A DNA stretch of 64,000 nt from Candidatus Woesearchaeota archaeon B3_Woes (GCA_005222965.1 NJBG01000001.1:896167-960166); one strand, 5' to 3'. Counted from the first letter of the stretch, positions 3,275 to 60,619 are shown. Program-made: numbers and translations. Notes: generated from the sequence alone by a model not told the origin.

Positions 3275-3490
3275 ACACAAACCCCAATTTGATTTATAGG
3301 AATGTTTATATAATATATATTCATTACTATCTATTATGGTAGAAACTATCAAGAAAACATTTGATTCTGTACTTCTTTTTTGTAGTGAACAGCCTACACC
3401 AACACCGGCACAGTAAGTGCCATCATTGTTCTGATATCTGAATTTATTCTTTAGAACTGAATATTCTTTAAATCAATGGAGGTAAACAAA

Positions 3491-3571: not shown

Positions 3572-4352
3572 GACTATAGGCATAATTGGAGCAGGTTGTC
3601 TTGGACAAGAAGTAATTGATGCACTTTATAACAAAGGACATAGGAACATTATCGCTACGCGTCGCAACCAGGATAAACTAAGATCATTAGGTGAAAAGTA
3701 CCAAGGAATCCAGACGAGTTCTGATAATAATTATGCTGCTAAGGAATCTGATGTGCTGATTCTAGCTGTAAAACCCCCATTGATTGATACTGTCTCCAAA
3801 GAGATAAGTTACTATACTAGTAACAAGCTTGTTATTTCATTAGCAGCTGCAAGAACCATTGAACAAATAGAATATGCGTTTAGTGATGAGTCTGCACGAG
3901 TTGCTCGTGTGATAACAGGACTGTTTGTAGCCGAAGAAGTTGCTGCTTACACACTAAGCAATAGATGCATAAATGAAGATGAAAGTGCAATTAGATACAT
4001 CTTTGGCCAAGATGCTAGATCTATAGAAGAAAATCTTCTTGCACATCGTACATTTATTGCTTGCGACACAGGTTTGATACCTAAATCTATTGGAGAGAAA
4101 ATGCAAGAACTAGAAAGATTAGGTATTAGTAAAGAAGAATCTAGATTGTTCTATGCTGCAACACTTCATGCAATAGCTAACCACCTAAGTGAAGGCATAA
4201 GTGGAGAAGAAATTTACGAGGCAGTAGGGGGAAAAGGTAGTTTTACTCAAAAACTAGGAAATGAACAAGAAGGAATTTACAGACTACAACAAAAACAAGT
4301 TACTGAAACAGTAAATGCTTGTTTAGGGAGGAAAGAAAATGGAAGAGATTAG
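3552..4352 (+). CDS. pyrroline-5-carboxylate reductase-like / F420-dependent NADP oxidoreductase family (Rossmann fold)
   Basis: N-terminal IGIIGAGCLG dinucleotide-binding motif, then ESDVLILAVKP, both typical of the ProC family. The 3516 start in the ORF track is probably too far upstream. GC content is visibly higher than the neighbours. Confidence 0.55.
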   Translation: MVVFLVKTIGIIGAGCLGQEVIDALYNKGHRNIIATRRNQDKLRSLGEKYQGIQTSSDNNYAAKESDVLILAVKPPLIDTVSKEISYYTSNKLVISLAAARTIEQIEYAFSDESARVARVITGLFVAEEVAAYTLSNRCINEDESAIRYIFGQDARSIEENLLAHRTFIACDTGLIPKSIGEKMQELERLGISKEESRLFYAATLHAIANHLSEGISGEEIYEAVGGKGSFTQKLGNEQEGIYRLQQKQVTETVNACLGRKENGRD

Positions 4353-4434
4353 CTATTGAGAATTTCAGAAAAGTTGAATTAAGAAAAAGAATCAATGTAA
4401 TGTTGCCACTCATTTAAATACACAAAAGAGGCAT

Positions 4435-4458
4435 ACAACTATATAAACTTTATCCAAA
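4435..4458. repeat. 24-nt exact direct repeat, copy 2
   Basis: Identical to 3251..3274. Followed by a purine-rich 110-nt intergenic stretch. Confidence 0.7.
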
Positions 4459-4581
4459 CAATACCCTTTTTGTTAAACTCCTGTTAGTTGCCTTGAGCCG
4501 AAGGAGAAAGCGCAGTAGGGTTGAGGAAAACGAAGTTTTCGTGCCTAAAATTAAAAACTTGCGACCTAGCCGTTGATTTAT

Positions 4582-5694
4582 TCAAACCCTTTCTTGAATA
4601 ATTAATTTTAGTTCATTAACAATGAGATTTATTAGTTCTTTTGATTTTATCTCATTTATCTTTTTTCTAGGGTTCCAGTCTATTCCAGGATTGGTATTCC
4701 CTTCAATAAAATATAAATTTCCATTATTACTTCGCATAAAATCCAAAGCGTACAGAGAATGTTTTAAATTCAATTTTGCTTCTAATTTTTTAATTATTTT
4801 TCTGGTCATAGTTAGAACGTCTTTATGTATTGTTTTTATGGACATGTAAACCAAATTTCCACCCTGGTGTTCATTGCATTTAAAATTCCCTTTTCTTGCA
4901 ATTCTTATATATGTCTGTATAATTTTATTGTTTAGTATTATAACTCTCAAATCAATAAGTCCATGATATTTTCCAATACTAAAACCCTTATTGCAATTAA
5001 TAAATGGTTGGAGTATGTAAGATAATATTTTTCCACTTTTTTTGTCTAATTCATAGTGTTTCATGATATCTTTAAAGCCAAATTTATCAAAATCTACTTT
5101 ATATATGTTAAAGCCACCTGCACCTGTTTTATCTTTTATTATATAACTATCATTAAAATCAGCTCTATATCTATACCTTTTTAATAATTTATCCAAATTG
5201 GTTTTAGCTAGAATTATTTTTCGTTTTGAAGAGTTAATTATTTCTACTGTAGGTATTGCAAATTCTTTAAAATGTTTATAGGTATTTAATTTATTCTGGA
5301 AAATATCTTTTATTTTTTCATTATTAAACGTATAAACAGATTTGGAAGATGTGAGCAATTTTAATTTATTTTTTTGTTTGATAGTAAAAGGAGTGAATTT
5401 ATCAAAAAGGACTCGGGAATATGCTTTACCATAATTTCTAACCCATTCTTTATCATATGTCCAAAAACTCTGAAAAAGACCAGATCCAATAATATCTTTG
5501 GATGTTGCAAAAGCGGCCTTAATGCCCATTTTTTTGCATCTTAATAAAAAATAAAGATAGCTATCATTGTAACCCCCTCGCCTGTCTTTGAATGAAAAAG
5601 GGAATTTTTCTCTATATTGCTTATCTCTTGCACTATTTGCAAAAGATTCTGAGTAAATTATAATTGCATCATACTGCTTTATTTTAATATCCAT
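4582..5694 (-). CDS. ATP-grasp domain protein (YheC/D- or RimK-like)
   Basis: Motifs YIIKDKTGAGGFNIYKV, DLRVIILNNKII and LYFIEGNTNPG match the ATP-grasp nucleotide-binding core. Confidence 0.45.
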   Translation of the reverse strand: MDIKIKQYDAIIIYSESFANSARDKQYREKFPFSFKDRRGGYNDSYLYFLLRCKKMGIKAAFATSKDIIGSGLFQSFWTYDKEWVRNYGKAYSRVLFDKFTPFTIKQKNKLKLLTSSKSVYTFNNEKIKDIFQNKLNTYKHFKEFAIPTVEIINSSKRKIILAKTNLDKLLKRYRYRADFNDSYIIKDKTGAGGFNIYKVDFDKFGFKDIMKHYELDKKSGKILSYILQPFINCNKGFSIGKYHGLIDLRVIILNNKIIQTYIRIARKGNFKCNEHQGGNLVYMSIKTIHKDVLTMTRKIIKKLEAKLNLKHSLYALDFMRSNNGNLYFIEGNTNPGIDWNPRKKINEIKSKELINLIVNELKLIIQERV

Positions 5695-20010: not shown

Positions 20011-20382
20011 TTATAGCTTCTTTTTGATCTTTCCTGTTAAAGAAAAATCTTTGATTTTCTTAGGTTTATGTAAAAATACATTGTATCCTTTTTCATTGTA
20101 TCGCGGAATGAGATGCCAATGTACATGACATGTTTCATCCATATATATCAAATATACTTTTTTAATTTTTAATGTTTTTATCAACACATTTCTGATATCA
20201 TCAACTTTATTCATTAAGTACTTATAATCTTTTTTTGATAATAGATGCAAATCTTTAATTGATTTTTTCCAGACAACCACAGTATGACCTTTTACAATTG
20301 GAAAGTTAGCAAGACACACATACAATTTCTTATCTTCATAGATAATGGCATCTTTAAATGGTTTAGGTAAATCAGGTTTCAT
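20011..20382 (-). CDS. HIT-family hydrolase
   Basis: HVHWHLIP histidine triad (HxHxHxx). 123 aa. Confidence 0.55.
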   Translation of the reverse strand: MKPDLPKPFKDAIIYEDKKLYVCLANFPIVKGHTVVVWKKSIKDLHLLSKKDYKYLMNKVDDIRNVLIKTLKIKKVYLIYMDETCHVHWHLIPRYNEKGYNVFLHKPKKIKDFSLTGKIKKKL

Positions 20383-20457
20383 AAATTTATTATAGAAAAG
20401 ATGTTTATAAAATTATCTATATATTAAAATTGTTCATAAATTACTTTTAAAACATAA

Positions 20458-21018
20458 TTATTCTAAACTTAAGAAATCCATTGTTGGTTTATATCCTTCT
20501 TGCAACCAATATCTTGATCTATCTAACATTATATCTGATTCATCTTTATACTGTTGTTTAACACCATCAACCAACAGACGTAGAAACTGATTAAAATTAT
20601 TAGCTACAACCATAGTCTCTCTTGAATCATGAGCTGTATTTAAAACACGTCCTTGCATAATTAGATATTCTGAATTAACATCAATCGTAATTGGATCACC
20701 ATTATCAGATGCTATCTCAACAACATCATCACAACCCTCAATCTCTTTTCCACTTTCTGGATTTGTATCATATAATAAGAGATGTTCTTCCAGTTCACTT
20801 ATACTATGAAAATATATATCTGAAATCTCAGCTCCATTTGAAAATCTTAAAAAAGCTAGATAATCATCTGATATTTCACTCCCTTTTACGGCATATTCCC
20901 TCTTAAGAGATTCTATTTCTTCTTCGCTTGCACCAGTATTAAATTTAATATCTTCTCTTTCTGTTTCAAGTTTTCGAAGCTCTGAAAAAATATCATCAAT
21001 TGAACTATTTTTTACCAT
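20458..21018 (-). CDS. hypothetical acidic protein
   Basis: 186-aa acidic ORF with no recognised motif. Confidence 0.35.
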   Translation of the reverse strand: MVKNSSIDDIFSELRKLETEREDIKFNTGASEEEIESLKREYAVKGSEISDDYLAFLRFSNGAEISDIYFHSISELEEHLLLYDTNPESGKEIEGCDDVVEIASDNGDPITIDVNSEYLIMQGRVLNTAHDSRETMVVANNFNQFLRLLVDGVKQQYKDESDIMLDRSRYWLQEGYKPTMDFLSLE

Positions 21019-21142
21019 GTTATTAAGTATAAAAAGACTAATATATAAATCTTTCGTTTTGTTATTACTTATTAGTAGATATTAAATTTATAAAAACGAA
21101 AAAACAATAAATTTAAATATCCAATAATTAATAAAGAACTAT

Positions 21143-21569: not shown

Positions 21570-23489
21570 ATGGAAACAAAAGTACCTGCACTAAAAAAAT
21601 TCCTAGAGGAAGTTAAAAGTTATAATCCAAAAGCAGACTTTAAAATAATTGAAAAAGCATTCAATCTATCAAAAAAAGCCCACAAAGGCCAAAAAAGAGC
21701 ATCAGGCAAACCCTACTTCTCTCATCCAATTGCAGTTGGAAGAACACTAATGGATCTTAATGTAGATTCTGCCACAATATGCGCATCTCTTTTACATGAT
21801 GTTATAGAAGATACAAAAATAACATATGAACAACTATCAAAAGAATTCAATAAAGAAATAGCAAATATTGTTGATGGCTTAACTCATATAGAAAAGATAA
21901 AATTTCAAAGCAGGGAAGAATATACTAATAAAAATATAAGAAAAGTTTTGCTAGCATCATCTAAAGATATTAGAATAATCTTAATCAAGTTAGCAGACAG
22001 GCTCCACAACATGCAAACCCTAAAATACATAAATCAAGGGAATCAAAAAAGGATAGCTAGAATAACTTTAGATATATTTGCACCGATTGCTGAAAAATTA
22101 GGATTATGGACTATTAAAGGAGAATTAGAAGACCTTTCATTAAAATTCCTAGAACCAAAAACATACGAATCTCTTAAAAAGAAGATTGGTGAAAAAAGAA
22201 CAAAAAGAGAACAACAAACAATAGAGATTGTTAACCTAATCCAAAAAGAACTTGAACACAACCATATAAAAGCAAAAACATTTGGAAGAGCAAAATATTT
22301 CTACAGCATCTACAAAAAGATGACGAAAAAGGATAAGAGATTTGATGAAATATTCGATTTAATTGGTATCAGAATAATTACTTCTAATGAAAGAGAGTGT
22401 TACGCAGCATTAAATTTAGTGCATAATCTATGGCCTCACAAAAAAACACAACTCAAAGATTATATAAAATACCCAAAAGACAACGGCTATCAATCAATGC
22501 ACACAACCGTCTATGGTCCTTATAATAAAGTACTGGAAATCCAGATAAGAGATCTTAAAATGCATTATGAAGCAGAAGGAGGTATTGCTGCTCATTGGAG
22601 ATATGCTGGAACAGAAAGAGACAAAGAATTTGACAGGCGTATCCAATGGTTTAAACAAGCAATAGAATGGAGAAGGTTTTCAAAAAACGCAAAAGAGTTT
22701 ATAGAAAACCTTAAAATGGATTTTTATGAAAACGAAATAATAATATTAACACCAAAAGGAGATCCTATTCCATTAAAAGAAGGCTCAACACCTTTGGATT
22801 TTGCTTACGAACTTCACACTTCAATCGGAAATCATTGTTCTGCAGCTATTGTAAATGGAAAAGCAGTTCCATTAGACTATAAATTAAAGAGCGGCCAAGT
22901 AGTTAACATAATAACCAAAGAAAAAGCCCACCCCTCTAGCTCATGGCTTAATATTGTCCAGACAAATCGTGCAAAATCCAAAATAAGAAGTTCTCTTGGA
23001 CTTACAATGAAGAGAAGCAAAATCACAATACCCTCTTTTGAAGAATCAAGCATAGCTCATAAATTACAGCTTAAAGATCCAACAATAAAAGCCAAAATAA
23101 AAATTGCAAGGTGCTGTAATCCTAGACTAAACGACCCTGTGATGGGTTACAAATACAACCACAACATAATAATTGTACACAATATAGAATGTCCTCAGAT
23201 GTCTGTTTTTGATAAAACAAAAAGAGTAAATGTTTTTTGGAAAATTAAGGAAACAGAAATAGATTCTAACACATTTAGAATAAAAGTTACTGACAGGGTT
23301 GGATTATTATCAGAAATACTTAATCTTTTCTCACAATATGGTCTTAAATTAGAATCTGTAACAACAAAAATATCCAAGAAAAGAGTTTTTTTTATAATTA
23401 AGATAAAGAAAATAAATCCAAAAACTTCAAAAGAAATCTTCACAAGACTTAAAACAATACCAAATGTCTTAGATATCTTCTTTGTCTAG
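21570..23489 (+). CDS. long RelA/SpoT homolog (HD hydrolase + (p)ppGpp synthetase + TGS + ACT)
   Basis: HD motif (SHPIAVG...LLHDVIEDT). Synthetase motifs (FGRAKYFYSIYKKM, DLIGIRIITS, YQSMHTTV). TGS region (IILTPKGDPIPLKEGSTPLDFAYELHT). C-terminal ACT-like segment. 639 aa. The last 73 bp of the gene are duplicated at 27301..27376. Confidence 0.85.
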   Translation: METKVPALKKFLEEVKSYNPKADFKIIEKAFNLSKKAHKGQKRASGKPYFSHPIAVGRTLMDLNVDSATICASLLHDVIEDTKITYEQLSKEFNKEIANIVDGLTHIEKIKFQSREEYTNKNIRKVLLASSKDIRIILIKLADRLHNMQTLKYINQGNQKRIARITLDIFAPIAEKLGLWTIKGELEDLSLKFLEPKTYESLKKKIGEKRTKREQQTIEIVNLIQKELEHNHIKAKTFGRAKYFYSIYKKMTKKDKRFDEIFDLIGIRIITSNERECYAALNLVHNLWPHKKTQLKDYIKYPKDNGYQSMHTTVYGPYNKVLEIQIRDLKMHYEAEGGIAAHWRYAGTERDKEFDRRIQWFKQAIEWRRFSKNAKEFIENLKMDFYENEIIILTPKGDPIPLKEGSTPLDFAYELHTSIGNHCSAAIVNGKAVPLDYKLKSGQVVNIITKEKAHPSSSWLNIVQTNRAKSKIRSSLGLTMKRSKITIPSFEESSIAHKLQLKDPTIKAKIKIARCCNPRLNDPVMGYKYNHNIIIVHNIECPQMSVFDKTKRVNVFWKIKETEIDSNTFRIKVTDRVGLLSEILNLFSQYGLKLESVTTKISKKRVFFIIKIKKINPKTSKEIFTRLKTIPNVLDIFFV

Positions 23490-23492
23490 TTT
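23417..23492. repeat. 76-bp direct repeat, left copy (covers the 3' end and stop codon of the RSH gene)
   Basis: tccaaaaacttcaaaagaaatcttcacaagacttaaaacaataccaaatgtcttagatatcttctttgtctagttt. Identical to 27301..27376 apart from one A/G mismatch. Confidence 0.85.
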
Positions 23493-23618
23493 TATCATTA
23501 TATTCAATAATATAACCTTTAACACATTCTTTCCCGAATAATTCTATGTAGAGATGTTGTGTTGATTTAATTTTTCATCAACTTCTTCATATTTATTCAC
23601 AACTCAGTTTTTTGCCTT

Positions 23619-24953
23619 TTAAATACTAAAGTACAAACTTGTTTTCGCTATTCCTGTTTTGATTAATGCATCGTATAGTTTCTGATGTTCTATGTCTCCT
23701 ATCTGTGTTGCTATCTCTAATGCTTTTTCGTATTTCATTTCTTCCTGAAATGCAGTCATTGCTTGTGGTAAGTATTTGTCTTCTCCGGTTATTTCTAGTG
23801 CTTGAAGAAGAAATTCACCCTTATTTCTGTCAGGTTTCGTTTGCCTTTTTTCTTTAGATACGACTACATCAACCGCTTCGATAACTTTACTTTTGTACCC
23901 ATTGCTAATTAACTTTTCAGCATCTGTTAAGAAACGCTCAGCAAGTGAGTCAGTATACTTCATAAAAATACGTTCTGACAAATGTGTTGCAGAAATTATA
24001 AGTTCATACAAGCTATTTTGTACATCATCTTTTTTCCTTTCCTCTACTGTCTGCACATCTATTTCTAACTCTAAATGCTTAAGACAGTGTATCTTATCAT
24101 AACTGCTTACATCATTGTTTACATTGTCTATTCCTTCTTGTGCTATTTTATTAGCATATTCTGGATGAATATTTTTAGCAAAGAAAATTGCCTTGGTATA
24201 AGGGTTAGTATATTGGCCGTCGTTGATTATTTCTTGTGTGTGTTTAATAACTTTTTTTTCAACCCATTTTCTGTTTGTTGGATTTGTTTTGATTCCTATT
24301 AGAGCCTCTCTCAAGTGTGCTAAATAAGACTGCCTTTTTGTTGGTTCTGCTATGAGAGATTCGTAAATTTCTTTGAATAAAGTTACTGCTTTTTTATCTG
24401 CATTTATTCTTTTGTATCCTTGTGCAACTGTGCTGAGAGAAGCTCTAAAAATTTGTCTTTCATCTTGTGCATCGATTTCGTTTGATAAAGATAAAGTGTT
24501 TGCTTTTTCTTTGATGTTTTTAACAACCTTATCAATTGTGTCTTCAGAAGTTGTCCCTCGAAGAACTTTTTCAAAATCATGATCAAACCCATTGATGACT
24601 GTGTTGGAAATGTATGTGTACATTTCTTCAGCACGTTTAGGGTCAATGTTCATTATCCGATCCGCTTCTATTTCCGCAAATGTTAAATATTCTCTTTTTG
24701 GATTCTCATCTTCAATCATAAGATCAATTATTTCTGAGAACTCAGAGTCTTGCTGGAAGCCTTGTACGTCCATAGATACAGAACTTGTTGTGTGCTTCGT
24801 TATTATTTCTCCTGCAAATGCTATCAGAAATCTTTCTCTTTCAGACATATAACCCCACCCTCCACAATCTAGGTTGTGTTGTGTGTTGTCTAATTGTGCT
24901 GTTATTTCTGCTAATGTTAATGTTTGTTCTTCTTGTGTTTGATTTGTTTCCAT
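23619..24953 (-). CDS. alpha-helical repeat protein of unknown function (island paralog A)
   Basis: 444 aa. Its N-terminal 23 aa (METNQTQEEQTLTLAEITAQLDN) and 5' leader are near-identical at the DNA level to those of 24977..26209. Confidence 0.5.
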   Translation of the reverse strand: METNQTQEEQTLTLAEITAQLDNTQHNLDCGGWGYMSERERFLIAFAGEIITKHTTSSVSMDVQGFQQDSEFSEIIDLMIEDENPKREYLTFAEIEADRIMNIDPKRAEEMYTYISNTVINGFDHDFEKVLRGTTSEDTIDKVVKNIKEKANTLSLSNEIDAQDERQIFRASLSTVAQGYKRINADKKAVTLFKEIYESLIAEPTKRQSYLAHLREALIGIKTNPTNRKWVEKKVIKHTQEIINDGQYTNPYTKAIFFAKNIHPEYANKIAQEGIDNVNNDVSSYDKIHCLKHLELEIDVQTVEERKKDDVQNSLYELIISATHLSERIFMKYTDSLAERFLTDAEKLISNGYKSKVIEAVDVVVSKEKRQTKPDRNKGEFLLQALEITGEDKYLPQAMTAFQEEMKYEKALEIATQIGDIEHQKLYDALIKTGIAKTSLYFSI

Positions 24954-24976
24954 TTTTTATTCACTTTCCATGTTTA

Positions 24977-26209
24977 TTACTCTAGCTTCAAGTACGCATC
25001 TATTGACCTGAATATCTGTTTTTGTTTTTTATTTCCAGCTTCTGTTGCAAGTATTGTTAATTCGTCATATTGACCATGTCTTTTGAAAGCGGATATTGCT
25101 TTGTCAAGGTAGTTCTCTCCTCCTAGCAATCTATGTACTTGAAGAAAACGTTCTCCTTCTTGTTCGCTAATCTCTGATTGTTTCATTTCTTCTTTATAGG
25201 TAATCGCTTCAGTGATAGCGTTTTCTGCTTCTTCAGCAAATCCTTTTTCTACTAGTTTTTCAATTGCATACCAGAAAGATAACTCTTTCGATGCATCTCC
25301 TCCCGCAGCGTATTCTTCATCTAAAAACGCGAAAGAGACATCTTCTTTAACTGTTGTCCGGTAATCATCAAGTCTTTGTTTTTCAACATGATTTTTTGTT
25401 TGCTCATCAGGTTCCATGTCAAGTATTTTGTATAGAGTGTGTTTTTCAGAATAGTTATTAGAATTTCTTATTCCTTCTTTGGCCATAGTTCTGGCAAGTT
25501 GTTGATCATATCCTTTAGCAGCATTAAACGCTTGTAAATATTCTTTATTCTCAAAATGTTCATTAGCTTTTGCTATTGCTAATATTTTCAATTTTTCGTT
25601 TGCTTTTTTCGTGCTTGTTCCATTAGCATTTAACTTTACTATTCTTAATAGATCGTCTGTTTCTTCATATAATTCGACTGCTTTTCTTGGATTGCCTAGT
25701 TTGTTATATTTGCTGGCTGCAGAACGAAGTATTTTAGTAAATTGTTCTTCCCCTAGCATTTGTTCTTTATCTCTTGCAATGCTAAGCGCTTGTTCGAGTA
25801 TTCTTTCAGATTTAGTGGACAAAATTACATTGTCTAGATAATTCAATTCTTCGCCTGTGCTTTCTGAGATTTTATCAAGCATAAACTTATACATCTCGCT
25901 TACTCGTTCAGGATTGTGTTTCTCTGACTCATATGCTTCAACGTGTGCAACTTCTAGATGGTGCCTGCTTATTCCTTTTTCATGTAGGATAAAATTTATA
26001 AGTGAACTTTTCTCATCTTCAGATAATCTTCCTCTTTTATCATGAAGATTAATTAAGAAACTTTCCTTTTCAGTTAAGTCTTCAACAGTCTGATAATGTG
26101 ACCTAAGAGTTTTTAGAGGTGCTTGAAAACCTCTTGTTTCATTATCTAGTTGTGCTACTATTTCTTTTAGTGTTAATGTTTGTTCTTCTTGTGTTTGATT
26201 TGTTTTCAT
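24977..26209 (-). CDS. alpha-helical repeat protein of unknown function (island paralog B)
   Basis: 410 aa. Shares the N-terminus MKTNQTQEEQTLTLKEIVAQLDN and the upstream ttttttattcac leader with paralog A. The C-terminal regions are only distantly similar. Confidence 0.5.
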   Translation of the reverse strand: MKTNQTQEEQTLTLKEIVAQLDNETRGFQAPLKTLRSHYQTVEDLTEKESFLINLHDKRGRLSEDEKSSLINFILHEKGISRHHLEVAHVEAYESEKHNPERVSEMYKFMLDKISESTGEELNYLDNVILSTKSERILEQALSIARDKEQMLGEEQFTKILRSAASKYNKLGNPRKAVELYEETDDLLRIVKLNANGTSTKKANEKLKILAIAKANEHFENKEYLQAFNAAKGYDQQLARTMAKEGIRNSNNYSEKHTLYKILDMEPDEQTKNHVEKQRLDDYRTTVKEDVSFAFLDEEYAAGGDASKELSFWYAIEKLVEKGFAEEAENAITEAITYKEEMKQSEISEQEGERFLQVHRLLGGENYLDKAISAFKRHGQYDELTILATEAGNKKQKQIFRSIDAYLKLE

Positions 26210-26340
26210 TTTTTATTCACCTTTTAATTTTTATTTACTTATTAGTAGTTAAAGTATTTCAACAATTATATAAAACTTTTCATTGATTTTTTTACTATTT
26301 AACCACAAAGTATATAAATACAACCAGATTAGTAGATATT

Positions 26341-27300
26341 ATGCTTATAAAACTAGATAAGAAAGATCGAAGAATACTCTACCATCTAGATTTAAACAGC
26401 AGGCAGACCTACAACCAGATAGCAAAGAAAGTAGGACTCAGTAGAGAAGTCATACAATATAGGATAAAGCAACTAGAAAAAAGAGGCGTAATCAGAGGCT
26501 ACCAGACACTAATTGATGTCACTAAGCTTGGCTATCTTAATTGCAGATTCTTCATAAAGTTCCAGAGAGATTCTCCTGAGCAGGAAAAAGAAATAATAGA
26601 GTACTACAAGCAACATCCAAATTTCTGGTGGGTTGACAGCATCGATGGATTCAGGGATCTAGGAATTGCCTGCTGGGTAAAAAACATCTACGAGTTCCAT
26701 GATATAAAAGAAGATTTAGTCAAAAGATTTGGAAACTTCATTCATGATTTTAACATGGCAATCTACTCGAAGTTTTATATCTACAAAAGAACTTATTTGC
26801 TGGATGATAAAATAGAACTTCCTCCTGTAAAAACAATGTTCTCGCAGGAAAAGGCAAAGTTTGACGATAAGGATATCGAACTCTTAAGATTAATAGCTCC
26901 AAATGCAAGAATGAGTTCAGTAGATCTTTCACAACAAACAGGAATAAGTGTTACAAACATCAACTACAGAATAAAGAAGTTGATTGAAAGGAAAATAATA
27001 GTTGAGTTCAGAGTGATAATTGATCTAAAGAAAATAGGTTATTACTGGTATAAGATAGAGTTCCAACTGGAAGACTTAAACATAAAAAAAGGATTGTTAG
27101 AATACTCTCACAAACACAAAAACATTATCTACGCGTATGAAACAATAAGCGAAAACGACATAGAAATAGAGCTTGAAGTGCAGAGTTATGAAGAGTTCAG
27201 AGAGATACTTGATGATATCAGAAAAACATTCGGCAAAGACATAAAGAAATATCATCACTTATTATGGTATAAGGAGCACAAGTTCCTGTTTATGCCATAA
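26341..27300 (+). CDS. tandem (duplicated) Lrp/AsnC-family transcriptional regulator
   Basis: Two successive HTH_AsnC-like segments (DRRILYHLDLNSRQTYNQIAKKVGLSREVIQYRIKQLEKRGVI and DIELLRLIAPNARMSSVDLSQQTGISVTNINYRIKKLIERKII). Each is followed by a RAM-like beta-alpha-beta domain. Confidence 0.7.
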   Translation: MLIKLDKKDRRILYHLDLNSRQTYNQIAKKVGLSREVIQYRIKQLEKRGVIRGYQTLIDVTKLGYLNCRFFIKFQRDSPEQEKEIIEYYKQHPNFWWVDSIDGFRDLGIACWVKNIYEFHDIKEDLVKRFGNFIHDFNMAIYSKFYIYKRTYLLDDKIELPPVKTMFSQEKAKFDDKDIELLRLIAPNARMSSVDLSQQTGISVTNINYRIKKLIERKIIVEFRVIIDLKKIGYYWYKIEFQLEDLNIKKGLLEYSHKHKNIIYAYETISENDIEIELEVQSYEEFREILDDIRKTFGKDIKKYHHLLWYKEHKFLFMP

Positions 27301-27376
27301 TCCAAAAACTTCAAAAGAAATCTTCACAAGACTTAAAGCAATACCAAATGTCTTAGATATCTTCTTTGTCTAGTTT
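27301..27376. repeat. 76-bp direct repeat, right copy (duplicated RSH 3' end)
   Basis: Single mismatch to 23417..23492. Contains an in-frame copy of the RSH C-terminal codons and stop, with no upstream gene body. Confidence 0.85.
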
Positions 27377-27421
27377 ATAAAAACATTTAAATACATTCTT
27401 CTACAGTAGTAGACTAGTAAA

Positions 27422-30073
27422 ATGCCTGATTACCATACTAAATCAATTGAAGAAACTCTGAAAAACCTGGAAACAAAAGATAAAGGGCTGACTCAGGAAG
27501 AAGCAAACAAAAGATTGATTAGATATGGCCCTAATGAAATAAAAGACACAGAACAAATATCTCCATTAAATATATTTATTTCACAATTCAAAAGCTTTCT
27601 TGTAGCAATCTTATTCATAGCTGTTATAGTTTCATTAATAATAGACCATAAGATTGATGCATTTGTAATAGCAATCATTCTTATCCTAAATGCCATCTTG
27701 GGCTTTGTTCAGGAATATAAAGCAGAAAAATCTATTCAAGCATTAAAAAAACTAGCTTCACAACAGTCAGTAGTACTAAGAGATGGAAAAGAAAAAAAGA
27801 TTAATTCAACAGAACTAGTTCCAGGAGATATCATTATTCTGGAAACAGGAGAAAAGATTCCTGCAGACTCAAGATTAATAGAATCTATAAATCTACACAC
27901 CCAGGAAGCAAGCTTAACAGGAGAATCAACACCAGTAACAAAAGACATAAAAACCTTAAATAAAAAATCACCAGTAGCAGACAGAAAAAACATAGTTTTC
28001 TCAGGAACAATCATAACTGCCGGAAGAGGAAAAGCAGCTGTAATCAGAACAGGAATGGATACTGAAATTGGCAAGATAGCCAAGATGATCCAAAAACAAA
28101 CAACAAAACTAACACCCTTGCAAATAAAATTAAAAAAATTAGGAGAACTACTTGGATTAGCAACAATAATAATCTGCTTTTTAGTTTTCTTCACAGGAAT
28201 CCTAGCGGGAATAGATACAATAACAATGTTCATAACAGCAATATCACTGGCAGTTGCAGCAATTCCAGAAGGATTGCCAGCAGTTGTAACAATTTCTTTG
28301 GCATTAGGAACCCAAAGAATGGTAAAAAGAAACGCACTAATCAGAAAACTGCCTTCTGTTGAAACACTTGGAAGCACCACTGTAATCTGTACTGATAAAA
28401 CAGGAACTCTTACATTAAATCAAATGACTGTTAGAAAACTTTTCATAAACGACAAAACAATTACAGTTACAGGGAGAGGATATGAATCAAAAGGAGAATT
28501 CTACCATAATAAAGAAAAGATTAACATAAAAGAAATTGAATTACTCTTAACAGCAGGAACTCTATGCAACAACGCAAAATTTGTAAACAGAGATATTATA
28601 GGAGATCCAACAGAGGGAAGCTTGGTTGTTAGTGCTGCAAAAGCAGAACTTCTAAAAGAAAAACTTGAAGAACAATACCCAAGAATAGATGAAATAGAAT
28701 TTACATCTGAAAGAAAAAGAATGAGCACACTACACAACATTAAAGGCACAAAAACAATTTATTCTAAAGGCGCTCCAGATGTTTTACTTAATTACTGCAA
28801 TAGGGTATACAAAAATGGAAAAATAAAAAAATTAACACAAGAAGAAAAAGAAAAAATTCTACAAATCAATGAAACATTTGCAAAACAAGCCTTAAGAGTT
28901 TTAGGATTTGCATTCAAACCATCAAACAAACTCGAAGAAAAAAACTTAATATTTATTGGATTACAAGCAATGATTGATCCGCCAAGAGAAGAAGTAAAAA
29001 CAGCAATAGAAAAATGCAAGCAGGCAGGAATAAAGGTTGTAATGATTACAGGAGATTTTAAAGTAACAGCAGAAGCAATTGGCCGTGAGTTAGGAATAAC
29101 AGGCCAGGCAATTGATGGAGCAGAACTAGACAACATCCAAAACCTAAAAGAACACGTTGAAAATATATCTATCTATGCAAGGGTTAATCCATCACACAAA
29201 GTAAAAATTCTTGAAGCTCTAAAAGAAAACAAACATATTGTTGCAATGACTGGAGATGGTGTTAATGATGCTCCTGCAATAAAAAAAGCAGATATAGGAA
29301 TATCAATGGGTATTACTGGAACAGATGTTGCAAAAGAAGCCTCTGATATGATTCTAATTGATGATAATTTTGCTTCAATTGTAAATGCAGTTGAAGAAGG
29401 AAGAGGAATTTATGACAACATAAAGAAATTTGTCCAATACCTCTTATCATCAAATATAGGAGAGATTCTAACAATCTTTGTAGCATTAATCATGGCACCA
29501 TTCTTTGCAAATGCCCTACCTCTAATTGCTCTACAAATCTTATGGATTAACTTAGTTACAGATGGACTACCAGCTCTAGCTCTGGGTGTTGATCCTACTG
29601 AACCACATATCATGAGAAAAAAACCAAGAAACCCAAAAGAAAATATAATCAATAAATCAAGAGCAATAAAAATGATTTTTATAGGTATCATAATGATGGT
29701 AGGTACTCTAGGAATATTTAAAATATACAATCCAAACATAAATTTAGTATATGCACAAACAATAGCATTTACAACCTTAGTCATGTTCCAAATGTTTAAC
29801 GTCTTAAACCTAAGATCAGATCAACATTCCTTATTCAAAATTGGTATTTTCTCAAATATGAAACTAATTATAGCAATTATAATATCAATAGCTCTGCAAT
29901 TACTGGTTGTCTATTCACCATTTATGCAAAACCTATTTAGTACAACAACACTATATCTAAAAGATTGGATATACATACTACTTGTTTCATCATCTGTTTT
30001 AATATTTGGAGAAATCATAAAAATATTTAATAAATTAATAAAAAAAAGAAAAAGAATAAGTCCAATACCTTAA
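27422..30073 (+). CDS. P-type Ca2+-transporting ATPase (P2-type, SERCA/PMCA-like)
   Basis: DKTGTLT phosphorylation motif, TGES, KGAPD, and the MITGDFKVTAEAIGRELGI/TGDGVNDAPAIKKADIGISMG hinge. About 10 TM helices. 883 aa. Confidence 0.85.
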   Translation: MPDYHTKSIEETLKNLETKDKGLTQEEANKRLIRYGPNEIKDTEQISPLNIFISQFKSFLVAILFIAVIVSLIIDHKIDAFVIAIILILNAILGFVQEYKAEKSIQALKKLASQQSVVLRDGKEKKINSTELVPGDIIILETGEKIPADSRLIESINLHTQEASLTGESTPVTKDIKTLNKKSPVADRKNIVFSGTIITAGRGKAAVIRTGMDTEIGKIAKMIQKQTTKLTPLQIKLKKLGELLGLATIIICFLVFFTGILAGIDTITMFITAISLAVAAIPEGLPAVVTISLALGTQRMVKRNALIRKLPSVETLGSTTVICTDKTGTLTLNQMTVRKLFINDKTITVTGRGYESKGEFYHNKEKINIKEIELLLTAGTLCNNAKFVNRDIIGDPTEGSLVVSAAKAELLKEKLEEQYPRIDEIEFTSERKRMSTLHNIKGTKTIYSKGAPDVLLNYCNRVYKNGKIKKLTQEEKEKILQINETFAKQALRVLGFAFKPSNKLEEKNLIFIGLQAMIDPPREEVKTAIEKCKQAGIKVVMITGDFKVTAEAIGRELGITGQAIDGAELDNIQNLKEHVENISIYARVNPSHKVKILEALKENKHIVAMTGDGVNDAPAIKKADIGISMGITGTDVAKEASDMILIDDNFASIVNAVEEGRGIYDNIKKFVQYLLSSNIGEILTIFVALIMAPFFANALPLIALQILWINLVTDGLPALALGVDPTEPHIMRKKPRNPKENIINKSRAIKMIFIGIIMMVGTLGIFKIYNPNINLVYAQTIAFTTLVMFQMFNVLNLRSDQHSLFKIGIFSNMKLIIAIIISIALQLLVVYSPFMQNLFSTTTLYLKDWIYILLVSSSVLIFGEIIKIFNKLIKKRKRISPIP

Positions 30074-33791: not shown

Positions 33792-33912
33792 GCTCCTATA
33801 GTGTAGCCCGGTCAATCACTCTGCCTTTTCGTGTTGGCAATCAAAGATTCCCAAAATTTTTTGATTCCACCAAAAAAAGGCAGGAACAGGGGTTCGAATC
33901 CCCTTAGGAGCA
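33792..33912 (+). tRNA. tRNA-Glu (anticodon TTC) with 46-nt intron at 37/38
   Basis: Exons give acceptor GCTCCTA/TAGGAGC, anticodon arm CTGCC-TTTTCGA-GGCAG and T-arm AGGGG-TTCGAAT-CCCCT. The intron is tgttggcaat...ccaccaaaaaa, located between loop positions 37 and 38. Confidence 0.75.
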
Positions 33913-42529: not shown

Positions 42530-44425
42530 ATGAAAACAGAAAATCAAATCAAAATAATAGCATATGTTGCTTTAATAGGAGTTATAACTATTTGGACAGT
42601 CATACTTGGCTCTTTGTTTGGATATATAGACAATAGAATTACAGGATTTGCTGTAGGAGATGGTAATGAAAGCAATGAAACAATAGATTGTAACAACAAC
42701 AGCATATGCGACGGAAATGAAACAATATTAACATGCCCATCTGATTGTAATACCACTAACGAAACTACCTGTAACAATAATAGCATATGTGATGGCAATG
42801 AAACAATATTAACATGTCCATCAGATTGTAATACAACCAACACAACAACATGTAATAATAACGGCACATGCGATACCAATGAAACATTTGAAACATGCCC
42901 ATCAGATTGTGTAGAGACCTGTACACCAGAAGAACAAAGAGATTGTGGAATAGAAGAAGGAATATGTATTACAGGTATTCAAACGTGTTATGAGAATGGA
43001 ACATGGGGAAGTTGCAATGGTTCAATCGAGCCCATGAATGAAACATGCAATGAATTAGATGATGATTGCGATGGAAAAGTAGATGAAGGATATGACTGGA
43101 ATAACAATAGCATAATTGATGATAATGAAACATTCGATTATGATGATGACGGATACTTCCCAAGAACAACCATCTATTTTAATCTATCATGCAGTAGTTA
43201 TTCTGAATATGATTGTAATGATACCAATTCAAGTATACATCCTAATGCACCTGAAATAGAAAATAATGTAGATGATGATTGTGATAGAGAGATAGATGAA
43301 ATAATATGGAATATAACCACAACCCATAAAATTAATCTAGGATATATAAAAAGAAACGGAACAAAAGCCTATCTGCGTGTAGGAGATTGGGCTGTCTTTA
43401 GCTACAAAAAACTTTATGGTACTCTTCTTTATGGAAAAATAGAACTAACAACACTTTCCTCAGCAGGAATTGGAATGACCTTCTCTGTTATCAAAGGAAT
43501 AAATATTAATGTTCTACCAGAAACAAATATGATAATTGGAGAATCAAAACAATATGATATGGATAACGATGGTAAAAATGATATTTCTATTAAATTAGAA
43601 GAAATACAATCTGATTTTAAAGCATACTTGATGATAAAAGATGTTTCAGAATACATCATGCCAACTTGCAATGATAATGGTGTTTGTGATGAAGGAGAAA
43701 CAGCAGCAAACTGCCCAGTAGATTGTTTAGTAATAAATTACTGCAATGAAAATGGAACTTGTGATGCAAACGAAACAATTGAAAACTGTCCAGAAGATTG
43801 CAAAGTAATTGAAGAGAAAAAAGCACCACCACCAGAACCAGTAGAAGAAGAACCTACTCAAGATTGGACATGTAATGATAATAATGTTTGTGAAGCATGG
43901 GAAACAAAACAGGACTGTCCATCTGATTGTAAAAAAGGTCCTATGCAATATATCCTTCTTGGTTTAATAACAACAAGTTTAATGCTATTAGTATTAGGAG
44001 GAATATTAATTAAAACCAAAAACCCCTATGGAATTAACAAAAAACTACAAAAAAACCTTGTTCAATCTATTAATAAAGGGTATGACTTAAACAATATCAA
44101 TTACTATCTAACTACCAAAAAACTTAAACAACCAAAGATAAAAAAAGCACTCAAATACGCATCTGATTTCATGGCTCTCAAAAGAGCAGTTATATTCTAC
44201 CTAAAACAAACTCATGATGAAAAGAAAGTAAAAAAGATGTGTATCAAAAATAAATGGTCTAAAAAACTAACAAATGATGTTTTTGACACTATTAAAATTC
44301 AACCAAAACCAGTTGTTCCTCAAAAAAAGATTGTTCCTTTTCAGCAAAAAAAGTTTATCAATCCCCCAAAAGGAAAAACAGCTCCTAAAACTGAAATTCA
44401 AAAAACCAAACTAAAAAAACTATAA
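42530..44425 (+). CDS. secreted Cys-rich glycoprotein-like protein with six 4-Cys 20-aa modules plus PF11617-like metal-binding motifs and a C-terminal TM anchor
   Basis: Signal/TM helix at the N-terminus. Six copies of C-N-[ND]-N-x-x-C-[DE]-x-x-E-T-x-x-x-C-P-x-D-C, two of them protein-identical but synonymously diverged. DCNDTNSSIHPNAPEIENNVDDDCD matches the putative metal-binding motif family. Many N-x-T sequons. TM helix near residue 480 and a basic cytoplasmic tail. Confidence 0.5.
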   Translation: MKTENQIKIIAYVALIGVITIWTVILGSLFGYIDNRITGFAVGDGNESNETIDCNNNSICDGNETILTCPSDCNTTNETTCNNNSICDGNETILTCPSDCNTTNTTTCNNNGTCDTNETFETCPSDCVETCTPEEQRDCGIEEGICITGIQTCYENGTWGSCNGSIEPMNETCNELDDDCDGKVDEGYDWNNNSIIDDNETFDYDDDGYFPRTTIYFNLSCSSYSEYDCNDTNSSIHPNAPEIENNVDDDCDREIDEIIWNITTTHKINLGYIKRNGTKAYLRVGDWAVFSYKKLYGTLLYGKIELTTLSSAGIGMTFSVIKGININVLPETNMIIGESKQYDMDNDGKNDISIKLEEIQSDFKAYLMIKDVSEYIMPTCNDNGVCDEGETAANCPVDCLVINYCNENGTCDANETIENCPEDCKVIEEKKAPPPEPVEEEPTQDWTCNDNNVCEAWETKQDCPSDCKKGPMQYILLGLITTSLMLLVLGGILIKTKNPYGINKKLQKNLVQSINKGYDLNNINYYLTTKKLKQPKIKKALKYASDFMALKRAVIFYLKQTHDEKKVKKMCIKNKWSKKLTNDVFDTIKIQPKPVVPQKKIVPFQQKKFINPPKGKTAPKTEIQKTKLKKL

Positions 44426-45391: not shown

Positions 45392-46948
45392 ATGAAGTAT
45401 AGTCCTTTAGAGAAAAAAGTAGAGAGAATTACTAAAAAGAATAAAATTCCTATAACTATAGTTACTTTTATCCTTCTTGTTGGACTGTTTATTGTTTATA
45501 ATTACAAACCCTCTGAAGAAAGTATAGAAAGGGAGTTTCTTGCACCACCAATAACTAATAAAACTTTTATGTTTAAAGAAGGGATCATATCAAATAATCT
45601 TTTTATTGAATTTAATATAACTCTTGAAGAAACAGGGATATATAGAATTAATGCAGAATTAAAAGATAATGAAGATAACATATTTTATCCTACTGGATCT
45701 AATAAATTTAATCTTAGCTCCGGCGAAAATACAGTCTTTCTTAATTTTAATGCAACTCAACTATACCTAAATAAAATAAATGGGTCTTATGAATTAACAA
45801 GATTAGATATTCAAAGAAAAGACTTTAAAATAAAGCTTAAGAATGTTTATAACACATCTGTTTACAATTATACTGATTTTGAATATATAAAAATATCAAT
45901 TAATCAAACACCAGAAGAATTAATTAACCAAACTCCAGAAGAAACAATCAACCAAACCCCTGAAGAAACCATTAATCAAACACCAGAAGAATTAATTAAC
46001 CAAACTCCAGAAGAAACAATCAACCAAACCCCTGAAGAAACCATTAATCAAACTCCAGAAGAGGTAATAAATAAAACACCTGAAGAAACCATAAACCAAA
46101 CTCCAGAAGAAACAATCAATCAAACACAAGATATCATTAACCAAACAAAAGAAATAATCAACCAAACCATAGAAGAAACAATAAATCAGACAGACAATCA
46201 AACAATAAACCAAACCCCTGAAGAAACCATTAATCAAACACCAGAAGAAACAATAAACAAAACAATCAATGACACAAACAATGAAATAATTGAAGAAATA
46301 AACACTAGAACCATCACCAGCGGTGGAGGAGGAGGGGGAGGTGGAGGAAGCTCTAACACAAAAACATACGCTTTTGGGGAATTAACTTCTCCTATCCAAC
46401 TAAGCTTAATTAGAAACAATATAGTTACATTTTATTTAAAAGAAGAATATCATAAAATTAACGTTATTAAAATAGGAAAAGATTATGTAGAACTAACAAT
46501 AAAATCAGATCCTATAACTGTTTTAGTTTATATAGGCCTAACAAAAAGGTTAGACATTAATAATGACAGGGTAGATGATATATATATAAAATTAAATGAT
46601 ATCAAATCAAGAAAAGCTGAAATTACTATAGGCAGAATTAAGCCAAAAATAAAATTAATATTCTGTAATAATAATGGGGTTTGTGATAAAGGAGAGAACT
46701 CAGCAAACTGCCCTAAAGATTGTCCTAAAGAAAAAGTTATCTCAGAACCAGTAAAAAAAGCACCAAAATATATTGAAAAGATAATATGCGATTATAATGA
46801 AATATGCGATAATGATGAAACCACTATGACATGCCCAACTGATTGTAAAAGAAACTATAAAGACAAGATTATTGTTAGTTTAATAACACTACTTGCAATA
46901 ATTATGATTTGTTTTATTGTTTTTGAGTATAAACATCATCAGGAATAA
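45392..46948 (+). CDS. membrane-anchored repeat protein: NQT octapeptide tandem repeats, poly-Gly, two C-terminal 4-Cys modules
   Basis: N-terminal TM helix. About 25 copies of INQTPEET-like units, each carrying an N-glycosylation sequon. A G9 tract. CNNNGVCDKGENSANCPKDC and CDYNEICDNDETTMTCPTDC modules. C-terminal TM helix. Confidence 0.5.
   Translation: MKYSPLEKKVERITKKNKIPITIVTFILLVGLFIVYNYKPSEESIEREFLAPPITNKTFMFKEGIISNNLFIEFNITLEETGIYRINAELKDNEDNIFYPTGSNKFNLSSGENTVFLNFNATQLYLNKINGSYELTRLDIQRKDFKIKLKNVYNTSVYNYTDFEYIKISINQTPEELINQTPEETINQTPEETINQTPEELINQTPEETINQTPEETINQTPEEVINKTPEETINQTPEETINQTQDIINQTKEIINQTIEETINQTDNQTINQTPEETINQTPEETINKTINDTNNEIIEEINTRTITSGGGGGGGGGSSNTKTYAFGELTSPIQLSLIRNNIVTFYLKEEYHKINVIKIGKDYVELTIKSDPITVLVYIGLTKRLDINNDRVDDIYIKLNDIKSRKAEITIGRIKPKIKLIFCNNNGVCDKGENSANCPKDCPKEKVISEPVKKAPKYIEKIICDYNEICDNDETTMTCPTDCKRNYKDKIIVSLITLLAIIMICFIVFEYKHHQE
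45895..46270 (+). repeat. 24-nt-period tandem repeat array (encodes the INQTPEET units), including an exact 72-nt higher-order duplication
   Basis: aaccaaactccagaagaaacaatcaaccaaacccctgaagaaaccattaatcaaacaccagaagaattaatt occurs twice, at about 45927 and about 45999. Confidence 0.8.
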
Positions 46949-58906: not shown

Positions 58907-60619
58907 CTAATGCCCTTCATGTTTAGGATGTTCATGTCCTCTCTTTTTCTTAGTTCTTAAATTTTCAATATGAGCAACTTTTTCTTTTAGAAATTTATTA
59001 AAACCTAGTCCATACTTTTCAATCAATGTAGAGGCATGACTTCCTCCTAAAAAGTGAGGCATAATTACATAAGTAGCACCTTTATCATATAATTCTAAAG
59101 CCTCATCAATCTGATGAGAAACAACAATTATAATCGCTTTTTTATTAGACTCTCTAATTTTATTAATTAATAAAAGATTTGTATCAAAGTCAGGTATTGT
59201 TGAATATATCATCTTAGCTTTTGAAAAACTCAATTCATTTAATAATTCTGGATCGCTGGCATCACCATATCTGCAATCAATTTTTTCTTTTGCAAGACCC
59301 CTTATTGTTTCTGGGTTATAGTCAATAACCAAAAATTTCTTTTTTATCTTTTTAAAAGATTCTATTAAATCATAACCAATCCGATTGCATCCAAAAAGAA
59401 TAATATCATAGAGGTCACGCTCGTGGTATTTATGTTCATCTACTTTACTTCCTCTTTTTTCAAAAATCTTCAAATATTTTGACAGATAGGGATATATCTT
59501 GTTTGCATAAATTATCATATAACTAGAACCCGCAATAGTTATTAAACCAATGACTGTTACTAATGACAAAATTTCATTTGTTAGATGACCTACTTGAACT
59601 CCTAATGCAACAAGGATTAAAGAGAATTCGCTGATTTGAGCCACAGTTAATCCAGCTAAGAAACTATTCCTTCTTGTATACCCAAGTAACCCCATTAATG
59701 TCATTACTATTATAGGATTTCCAATCAATATGAATATTGAAAGTGCGAGTATAGCAGGAATATACTGATGCATACTTGTAAAAACCATTTGAGAACCCAA
59801 TAATATAAAAAACAGAACAATAAAAAAATCACGTAAAGGTCGCATTCTAGAGCTAATTTCATAGCGATAAGGAGATAAAGATAATGTAACTCCTGCTAAT
59901 AAAGCCCCAATTTCCATTGAAAAATTAAAGTAATGAAAAAGAGAAGCTAATGCCAAACACCAACTAATTGAAAATAATAATAATAATTCTTGGGATTTCG
60001 CAAATAATTTGGTTACTTTTGGCAATATATAAACACCAACTAAAAATAATATTAATAACAAGCCAAATCCTTTCAAAATTATTTCAAAAATTAAAGTAGT
60101 GAAATCAAATCCAGTAGAAATTGACGAAATAACCATCAAAATGAGCATTACAATTAAGTCTTGAACAATTAAAAAACCTATAGCAATTTTCCCATATAAT
60201 GTCCCAATATCATCTTTGTCTGATAAAAGCTTCATAATAATTATAGTGCTACTGAATGCTAAAGCAATAGCAACATATATTGACGTTGTCGTAGAGAAAC
60301 CAAACAATTTACATATAAAAAAACCAATTAAGGAAGTGAATATAACTTGGCCAATTCCAGTAACTGAAGAAACCTTACCTACTTCTTTTATGACCTTAGG
60401 ACTTAAATTTAAACCAACAATAAAAAGAAGTAAAGCTATGCCCATACGTGAGAATATATCTATAGTTTCAGTTGAACTAATAATATTAAGAAAATAAGGT
60501 CCTGCTACTATACCGCTAAGAATATAGCCCACTATTAAAGGTTGTCTTAACAACCTCATCACCCCTGCAATTAGAGTAGTTATTATAATGATTATTCCTA
60601 TTTCAATTAATATTTCCAT
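58907..60619 (-). CDS. monovalent cation:proton antiporter (CPA2, Kef-type) with C-terminal RCK/TrkA-N domain
   Basis: 12-13 TM helices followed by a Rossmann GxGxxG (ILFGCNRIGYDL) RCK domain. 570 aa. Confidence 0.75.
   Translation of the reverse strand: MEILIEIGIIIIITTLIAGVMRLLRQPLIVGYILSGIVAGPYFLNIISSTETIDIFSRMGIALLLFIVGLNLSPKVIKEVGKVSSVTGIGQVIFTSLIGFFICKLFGFSTTTSIYVAIALAFSSTIIIMKLLSDKDDIGTLYGKIAIGFLIVQDLIVMLILMVISSISTGFDFTTLIFEIILKGFGLLLILFLVGVYILPKVTKLFAKSQELLLLFSISWCLALASLFHYFNFSMEIGALLAGVTLSLSPYRYEISSRMRPLRDFFIVLFFILLGSQMVFTSMHQYIPAILALSIFILIGNPIIVMTLMGLLGYTRRNSFLAGLTVAQISEFSLILVALGVQVGHLTNEILSLVTVIGLITIAGSSYMIIYANKIYPYLSKYLKIFEKRGSKVDEHKYHERDLYDIILFGCNRIGYDLIESFKKIKKKFLVIDYNPETIRGLAKEKIDCRYGDASDPELLNELSFSKAKMIYSTIPDFDTNLLLINKIRESNKKAIIIVVSHQIDEALELYDKGATYVIMPHFLGGSHASTLIEKYGLGFNKFLKEKVAHIENLRTKKKRGHEHPKHEGH

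Follow-up and report, generated by a model that had tools for sequence, protein, structure and literature searches.

SSV-type and pNOB8-type elements of archaea integrate by means of tyrosine recombinases into the 3' part of tRNA or protein-coding genes and leave att duplications of tens of bases, and the tycheposon-derived islands of marine cyanobacteria are cargo-only modules that lie between repeated partial target genes, with the recombinase located outside the module. Transposons, insertion sequence (IS) elements, and casposons generate target duplications of ~2 to 15 bp and possess terminal inverted repeats and a transposase or Cas1. Some cis-mobilizable elements (CIMEs) are located at the 3' end of a protein-coding gene, fda being one example. 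CIMEs are decayed remnants of ICEs (integrative and conjugative elements) or IMEs (integrative and mobilizable elements) that retain attL and attR and have lost their integration and transfer genes, and are best known in Streptococcus (PMC5704250). Here, we describe a CIME-like locus in Candidatus Woesearchaeota archaeon B3_Woes, a metagenome-assembled genome consisting of a single 1,000,545-bp contig, of which 64 kb (the whole stretch of DNA that was analyzed, termed the window herein) were examined. At this locus a tandem Lrp/AsnC-type regulator gene and two paralogous genes for predicted helical proteins (h444 and h410) lie between two copies of a 78-nt direct repeat that duplicates the end of a RelA/SpoT homolog (RSH) gene. 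We propose that a single, recent event inserted this three-gene module at the far 3' end of RSH.

The repeat copies (23415-23492 and 27299-27376) are identical at 77 of their 78 positions and are separated by 3,806 bp. Copy 1 (attL-like, 23415..23492, plus strand) consists of the last 75 nt of RSH, including the stop codon, plus 3 nt; copy 2 (attR-like, 27299..27376, plus strand) is a fragment of the RSH 3' end that is non-coding and does not share the frame of the Lrp open reading frame (ORF; 26341..27300), within whose TAA stop it starts, such that the two overlap by the last 2 nt of the ORF. The sole mismatch is at repeat position 40, where the functional gene has A at 23454 (ACA, Thr) and copy 2 has G at 27338 (GCA), the latter also being found in the RSH of L023 (SDBS01013172.1), the nearest relative with conserved flanks. 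An initial annotation, made from the sequence alone, had reported a 76-bp repeat containing 73 bp of RSH; the repeat is real, with a single mismatch, and does duplicate the RSH 3' end with its stop, but its left coordinates had been set two bases short.

Only two copies of the repeat occur in the 64 kb when up to three mismatches are allowed, and none of 100 dinucleotide-preserving shuffles yielded any match; within the window it is not the multi-copy dispersed repeat that would have told against the initial annotation. It is also the only long dispersed direct repeat there, intragenic tandem arrays aside. A blastn-short search of the window uncovered no additional copy, whole or partial, of more than 16 nt, and the idea of a third or internal att copy, as expected from tandem accretion, was dismissed on that ground. 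The repeat edges are sharp, with similarity stopping at both ends, and the ends of the insert have no terminal inverted repeats. RNA or DNA structure within the repeat was considered and rejected, as the fold was not significant (z = -1.1).

The central mismatch also bears on whether the arrangement is an artefact, that is, a block wrongly joined at a short shared sequence during assembly. The source is a metagenome-assembled genome, and exact-protein look-ups with RSH, h444, the downstream ATPase, and MetK returned neither a strain-level empty site nor a second assembly of the strain in which the junctions could be seen. However, the mismatch leaves exact words of only 39 and 38 nt common to both copies, there is unique sequence at each junction, a chimeric join would not abut a gene-fragment copy on the stop of a complete ORF, and the flanks on both sides of the insert are collinear with those of L023. 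We therefore consider misassembly highly improbable.

In relatives L023, L024, and L025, the same 78 nt are 77%, 67%, and 54% identical, respectively. Because identity is only 77% in L023 and is 99% between the copies here, copy 2 must have derived from the RSH of this lineage; the duplication is a sharp and recent copy of the lineage's own RSH 3' end. One route to such a copy would be a larger duplication, comprising much or all of RSH and made as the block arrived or moved, the second copy of which was later trimmed by deletion to the Lrp stop, leaving 78 nt. Copy 2 is indeed bounded at both ends by functional sites (the stop codon of the Lrp gene and a TATA-like box of the ATPase gene), and this compact genome leaves little space between genes, both of which are in keeping with trimming. 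Yet this route needs at least two events in the time of one substitution per 78 nt, no other RSH-derived debris lies in the window, and the termination of copy 1 at 3 nt past the RSH stop is left unexplained, such that we regard trimming as improbable.

The target gene (21570..23489, plus strand) is intact and encodes a 639-aa Rel-type (p)ppGpp synthetase/hydrolase with Pfam domains HD_4, RelA_SpoT, TGS, and ACT. With HD hydrolase, synthetase, TGS, and ACT regions in one protein it is a long RSH of the Rel/SpoT type, and it matches NCBIfam TIGR00691 at 634 bits (cut-off 499). Orthologs from the best metagenome relatives are 83% (L023), 74% (L024), and 69% (L025) identical, and no RSH closer than 50% was found among GTDB representatives. 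Full-length RSHs of the bifunctional type (HD, synthetase, TGS, and ACT) appear widespread in assemblies of Woese-, Pace-, and Nanoarchaeia (by source names), at ~50% identity to the window protein. The RSH, ATPase, and MetK proteins of the window were missing from the protein and gene-position collections, in which neighboring proteins of the same genome were present.

To the right of copy 2, a native spacer of 45 nt (27377..27421, plus strand) separates the RSH fragment from the gene of a P-type cation ATPase (27422..30073, plus strand; Pfam E1-E2_ATPase and Cation_ATPase_N/C). A TATA-like box, TTTATAAAAA, begins at the repeat edge and is the putative ATPase promoter. The first 6 nt after the stop (TTTATA) agree with the RSH flank of L023, and the flank of copy 1 differs. 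At the left inner end of the insert, the 126 nt that lie downstream of h444 (23493..23618) are non-coding, contain no ORF, and have no similarity to the native RSH downstream flank.

The ATPase serves as the right-hand syntenic anchor and is 74% identical to its counterpart in L023, in which it sits downstream of RSH and a Kef gene; p129, the gene preceding RSH, is 78% identical. The complete order in L023 is M29 peptidase (minus strand), p129, RSH, a Kef-type Na+/H+ exchanger with TrkA_N, ATPase, and MetK (minus strand). Both the cargo and the repeat are missing from L023, and the block in B3_Woes is thus a lineage-specific insertion relative to it. The insertion proposed in the initial annotation holds to that extent; the clean empty site that it had suggested looking for, with RSH followed directly by the ATPase, is not what L023 offers, as the Kef gene (3004-4722) fills the slot.

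In the window, the Kef ortholog (75% identical) is found 31 kb away and inverted (58907..60619, minus strand). It lies there between genes for a pseudouridine synthase and GyrB and has the third most atypical codon usage (z = -2.0). A double-inversion model tying the Kef relocation to the insert was rejected, since it leaves the RSH fragment directly upstream of the ATPase unexplained. Further differences are seen on the other side of RSH, where HIT-family and SUKH/SMI1-family genes (20011-21018) stand between M29 and p129; they are missing in L023, in which M29 adjoins p129. In relative L034, the M29-p129 slot holds a different gene of ~660 bp with two H-x-[TS] motifs, which looks like a 2H phosphoesterase. 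More distant relatives (69 to 74% RSH identity) have RSH between Alba and AA-kinase/ProRS. No flanking duplication was found at the HIT and SUKH insertion or at the L023 Kef gene, nor were analogous duplications found beside the RSH or Lrp orthologs of relatives. The genes around RSH have thus not kept a fixed order in this clade, and the 78-nt duplication is unique to this event.

This fluidity raises the alternative that no mobile element was involved, and that the insert is one more case of the rapid gene-order flux of the lineage: a staggered break or stalled fork between RSH and the ATPase gene would have taken up linear DNA, acquired or relocated, with fill-in or template switching copying 78 nt of the target on both sides. 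The neighborhood has indeed been rearranged repeatedly (Kef moved, HIT and SUKH genes inserted, another gene in L034, and RSH placed by Alba, AA-kinase, and ProRS), and the 99% identity of the copies would be automatic if the target itself had been copied, given that the L023 RSH end reaches only 77%. Microhomology at the junction is limited to 2 nt (AA of the Lrp TAA stop and AA of AATCC), recombinase, inverted terminal repeats, and mobile-element genes are lacking, and the regulator belongs to a conserved chromosomal family. On the other hand, the other indels examined in the lineage show no duplication, and two boundaries as precise as these, one 3 nt past the RSH stop and one with the insert ending at the Lrp stop, are rarely given by random breaks. 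To our knowledge, target duplications of ~78 bp have not been described for any prokaryotic insertion or end-joining pathway. Overall, we view capture at a break or fork as somewhat unlikely, though it is the alternative that we take most seriously.

Composition provides a separate line of evidence on where the insert came from. Its G+C content is 0.329, compared with 0.306, which places it in the top 5% of same-size windows, and its tetranucleotide distance is in the top 2.5%. The earlier description of the insert as GC-richer than its flanks, for which a k-mer comparison had been proposed, thus applies only weakly to the insert overall; the main signal is the third-position G+C content (GC3) of the Lrp gene. 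This gene has a GC3 of 0.401, against 0.189 ± 0.031 (maximum, 0.254) in 52 other ORFs, which corresponds to a z of 6.8. No other gene in the 64 kb departs as far in codon usage; it has the worst fit to the synonymous codon table of the window (z = -3.2), and the Lrp codons fit the tables of relatives L044 (36% G+C) and L047 (38% G+C) better than that of its own genome. Lrp orthologs otherwise follow the GC3 of the genome in which they reside; since the ortholog in L045 (31% G+C genome) has a GC3 of 0.175, the high value is not a property of the family. It is not an effect of expression either, because GC3 in the window is low for the genes of ribosomal protein S3Ae, MetK, and RuBisCO. As GC3 remains high up to the final Lrp codons, the foreign-looking DNA directly adjoins the repeat.

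A strongly foreign codon signature is thus present in at least the regulator gene. Movement of a native Lrp block from elsewhere in the genome, which we had considered in light of the conserved family and promoter, was downgraded as regards the Lrp gene by the GC3 value (z = 6.8). The two helical genes are host-like in codon usage, with GC3 of 0.215 and 0.255 (z = 0.8 and 2.1). Hypothetical genes of L044 have similarly low GC3, such that the Lrp and helical genes may have come from a single donor. The neighbors of Lrp orthologs in other genomes have no counterpart in the window.

We tentatively favor, with somewhat less than even confidence, a Campbell-type integration of circular DNA carrying an RSH 3' end, which would have left a CIME-like island lacking an integrase. 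In this model, a circular molecule with a 78-bp copy of the lineage's RSH 3' end would cross over with its identical chromosomal counterpart; the catalyst may have been a site-specific recombinase (provided in trans, or once encoded by the island and now gone), or else host homologous recombination. RSH would have been kept intact with copy 1, a 78-nt RSH fragment would have been displaced to a position before the ATPase, whose native promoter was kept (copy 2), and the cargo would have come to lie between attL/attR-like direct repeats. The island is not expected to be self-mobile, but could be lost, or mobilized in trans, through recombination between its repeats.

Several features argue for such an integration. 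The repeat ends 3 nt beyond the RSH stop; copies by which an element restores its target gene typically stop there, and nothing would lead a random staggered break to do so. The model explains this end point, the intact state of RSH and of the ATPase promoter, and the occurrence of a duplication at this event alone, a specificity indicated by the HIT and SUKH and L023 Kef indels, which have no flanking duplication. The functional gene is the copy with the non-ancestral base at the mismatch, which weakly, at one site, agrees with an attL that took its distal part from the incoming molecule. The initial annotation had likewise proposed site-specific integration with an attL/attR-like duplication; a duplicated RSH 3' end does bracket the insert, but the recombinase, cognate element, and attP that would complete the picture did not emerge from the searches described below.

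A number of observations weigh against integration of circular DNA. Searches with Pfam identified no recombinase or transposase family in 48 scanned ORFs of the window, and the cargo itself yielded no recombinase, integrase, or transposase in Pfam, PHROGs, PADLOC, or NCBIfam, in line with the earlier remark that no integrase, transposase, or mobilization gene lies inside; matches of the cargo to PHROGs were confined to the winged helix-turn-helix (wHTH) regions. Of the features by which an integrated element is recognized, a direct repeat spanning the 3' end of the target gene is present and a tyrosine or serine recombinase of its own beside the att site was not found. Hallmark genes of viruses, plasmids, or conjugative elements (replication, capsid, and transfer) were not detected in the cargo, and the three ORFs fill the insert, leaving no room for pseudogene debris.

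The databases searched also offered no source for the island. Neither a profile of the helical paralogs, a degenerate pattern of the repeat, an exact 30-mer of the repeat, nor the Lrp protein had a match in IMG/VR, and the whole island had no blastn match in PLSDB or INPHARED. No element with this 78-mer or with related cargo was found in IMG/VR, PLSDB, INPHARED, or the RSH loci of relatives, viral contigs yielded nothing resembling an attP, and the cargo module had no further occurrence in the databases searched. Since the 78-mer is only 77% identical in L023, an incoming element would have to have captured the RSH end of this very lineage, yet its Lrp gene looks foreign; a repair-type duplication would account for the 99% identity without prior capture of an RSH end. 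The regulator, as a member of a chromosomal family that is conserved in DPANN together with its promoter, is not typical cargo of a selfish element, the codon usage of the helical genes is host-like, and the same slot has been altered by ordinary rearrangement, as the Kef relocation attests.

The insert consists of three ORFs that fill the 3,806 bp with spacers of 126, 23, and 131 nt. Its organization as two divergent modules, a minus-strand pair of helical paralogs and a plus-strand tandem Lrp/AsnC gene, is as first described. The first gene of the minus-strand operon, h410 (24977..26209), encodes an orphan alpha-solenoid protein of 410 aa, and the second, h444 (23619..24953; CEE44_04970), an orphan predicted all-alpha protein of 444 aa; CEE44_04980 is a second cargo protein recorded at NCBI. 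The two proteins are paralogs (26% identity, E value of 5e-30), and both are predicted to be all-alpha.

Neither protein matched a family in Pfam, PHROGs, PADLOC, NCBIfam, or PDB sequences, even at E values up to 10. In a word-indexed search of 5.8 billion proteins, h444 matched only itself, and a profile of the paralogs recovered, from 1.84 billion representatives, one further distant relative of 253 aa on a 3.3-kb contig with unremarkable neighbors; this scarcity, too, weighs against the integration model. The AlphaFold model of h410 is an alpha-solenoid (predicted local distance difference test [pLDDT] score of 71, with a core above 80), which bears out the helical-repeat label that the pair had been given and for which structure prediction had been advised. 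Structures similar to the model were limited to generic designed helical repeats and VPS35, HAT, TPR, or Sel1 proteins. A single-sequence AlphaFold2 model of h444 had a pLDDT of 50 and was unusable.

The 5' ends of the two helical genes are conserved over 82 nt, comprising 14 nt upstream and the first 22 codons. The segment at h444 (24886..24967, minus strand) is 89% identical to that at the 5' end of h410 (26142-26223). The encoded N termini are METNQTQEEQTLTLAEITAQLDN and MKTNQTQEEQTLTLKEIVAQLDN, and the first 23 residues are nearly identical between the paralogs (M-x-TNQTQEEQTLTL-x-EI-x-AQLDN). The N terminus is predicted to be disordered but for one helix, and the 14 nt upstream common to both genes include a GGTGA-like ribosome-binding site. 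Nine nucleotide differences separate the two segments. Because four of the nine are synonymous, the conservation suggests selection on the N-terminal peptide rather than very recent gene conversion.

The regulator (26341..27300, plus strand) is 319 aa long and has two wHTH modules, with Pfam HTH_24 and HTH_AsnC each matching two stretches. In tandem regulators of the Lrp/AsnC (feast/famine) type, an effector (RAM-like) domain follows each AsnC-type wHTH module; PF01037 falls below threshold in the window protein and is carried by some homologs. The family comprises 245 clusters, almost all of ~319 aa, in Woese-, Pace-, Nano-, and Micrarchaeota, with a best identity of 76 to 77%. As proteins of this length occur throughout DPANN, the gene is complete and has not been cut by the junction. 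Among the best 120 Lrp homologs listed, no other family member on the 1.0-Mb contig was apparent.

Between the Lrp gene and h410 lies a divergent promoter region (26210..26340); its Lrp-proximal ~100 nt are conserved in the orthologs of that gene. The upstream elements common to L044, L045, and L047 are ATATAAAAC ... TTTACTATTTAACCA ... TATATAAATA ... ATTAGTA..ATG. The divergent neighbor varies: it is a small ORF in L045, and in several relatives (L044, 6753-8960; L047, 5586-8960) one or two radical-SAM/SPASM genes stand divergent to the tandem Lrp gene. This pairing recalls Lrp-like proteins of the NirDL/AhbAB type, which lie beside radical-SAM enzymes; the window protein has weak matches to Pfam NirdL-like_HTH and NCBIfam AhbA. 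By analogy with further regulators of the Lrp/AsnC type, the Lrp protein probably controls the divergent helical operon.

A 14-mer, ATTAGTAGATATTA, occurs at 21071-21084, on the border of the window-specific HIT-SUKH segment that lies upstream of p129-RSH, and at 26328-26341, directly before the Lrp start codon; a related sequence, TTACTTATTAGTAG, is found at 21063 and 26232. The 14-mer was rejected as an Lrp operator because exact 14-mer pairs are expected by chance in AT-rich DNA and neither L023 nor L034 conserves the motif upstream of p129. The recurrence of ATTAGTAGATATTA and TTACTTATTAGTAG is probably due to chance, although a shared operator of both loci could also produce it.

Elsewhere in the window, the assignment to a DPANN archaeon is consistent with the housekeeping genes (S3Ae, Alba, S17e, FtsY, ScpA, RuBisCO, and GyrB) and with an intron-containing tRNA. 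The latter corresponds to an Rfam tRNA match of 121 nt (33792-33912) that ARAGORN did not call in bacterial mode, as would be consistent with an archaeal tRNA of that kind. Two ORFs contain internal repeats: a 24-nt tandem array of ~12 or more units (45843-46311) lies within ORF 45392..46948, and three Cys-rich 81-nt repeats (42689-42931) lie within ORF 42530..44425, an ORF with a MopE-like metal-binding motif. Their products look like repetitive surface or secreted proteins, in a BatA/VWA/MoxR/DUF58 cluster.

Gene gain in DPANN archaea, which have small genomes and few recognizable mobile elements, is poorly documented, and the locus provides a clean example that can be dated, given one substitution per 78 nt since the event. 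A regulator with foreign codons and two lineage-specific genes arrived together at the end of a stringent-response gene, with neither neighbor damaged. If the repeats are true att sites, they point to a yet undiscovered Woesearchaeota element with an integrase and with RSH as its target; if not, they point to an insertion mechanism with unusually long target duplications. In the latter vein, DPANN archaea may insert acquired DNA independently of a recombinase while copying tens of target bases on both sides, an idea that we hold to be unlikely on present evidence; such a duplication may be made by host replication or repair machinery or by Campbell recombination at very short homology. Were it correct, reduced genomes could slot regulator-plus-operon modules between essential genes without disrupting them, and the 78-nt duplication would be the first recognized footprint of this route. 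The practical value is modest, as this is a case study of recent gene gain beside a conserved gene in a DPANN genome and not a new system. The option of a new kind of insertion, also raised in the initial annotation, is possible and gained no positive support.

Set against the known systems, the locus is not a transposon, IS element, or casposon. It shares with these a direct target duplication on both sides of the insert, but the duplication is 78 nt long, and there are no inverted repeats and no transposase or Cas1. Tycheposon-derived islands resemble it in that their cargo, too, is bounded by partial copies of the target gene's terminal part, with a recombinase that is not in the module. 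Those islands, however, adjoin recombinase-encoding elements and have several att repeats in arrays, whereas the present locus has two copies and no recombinase in 64 kb. The likeness to SSV-type and pNOB8-type elements lies in a duplicated gene 3' end flanking foreign-looking DNA and in a repeat length within the usual range; unlike them, the island lacks an integrase, be it complete or in separate N- and C-terminal parts at its ends, carries no hallmark genes, and has RSH rather than a tRNA gene as its target.

Structurally, the locus resembles a CIME, a decayed integrated element of archaea, or a tycheposon-type cargo-only module, all of them att-flanked islands lacking an integrase. CIMEs differ from the locus in that the site in B3_Woes has no cognate integrase-bearing element with the same site in IMG/VR, PLSDB, INPHARED, or the RSH loci of relatives, and in that no decayed mobile-element genes or pseudogenes lie inside the island. 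The host is a DPANN archaeon, the 78-nt repeat comes from the host's own gene, and the cargo is a chromosomal regulator of a conserved family accompanied by two orphans. Like a CIME, however, this is a small island whose direct repeats take in the 3' end of a conserved, still intact protein-coding gene, with no recombinase or transfer gene inside. It has the structure of attL and attR kept without integration and transfer genes, where the function of the repeats as att sites of a site-specific recombinase is assumed, and its loss or mobilization via the repeats is conceivable. The island looks stranded or passively moved rather than like a new kind of mobile element, and the locus most likely belongs to a known kind of structure.

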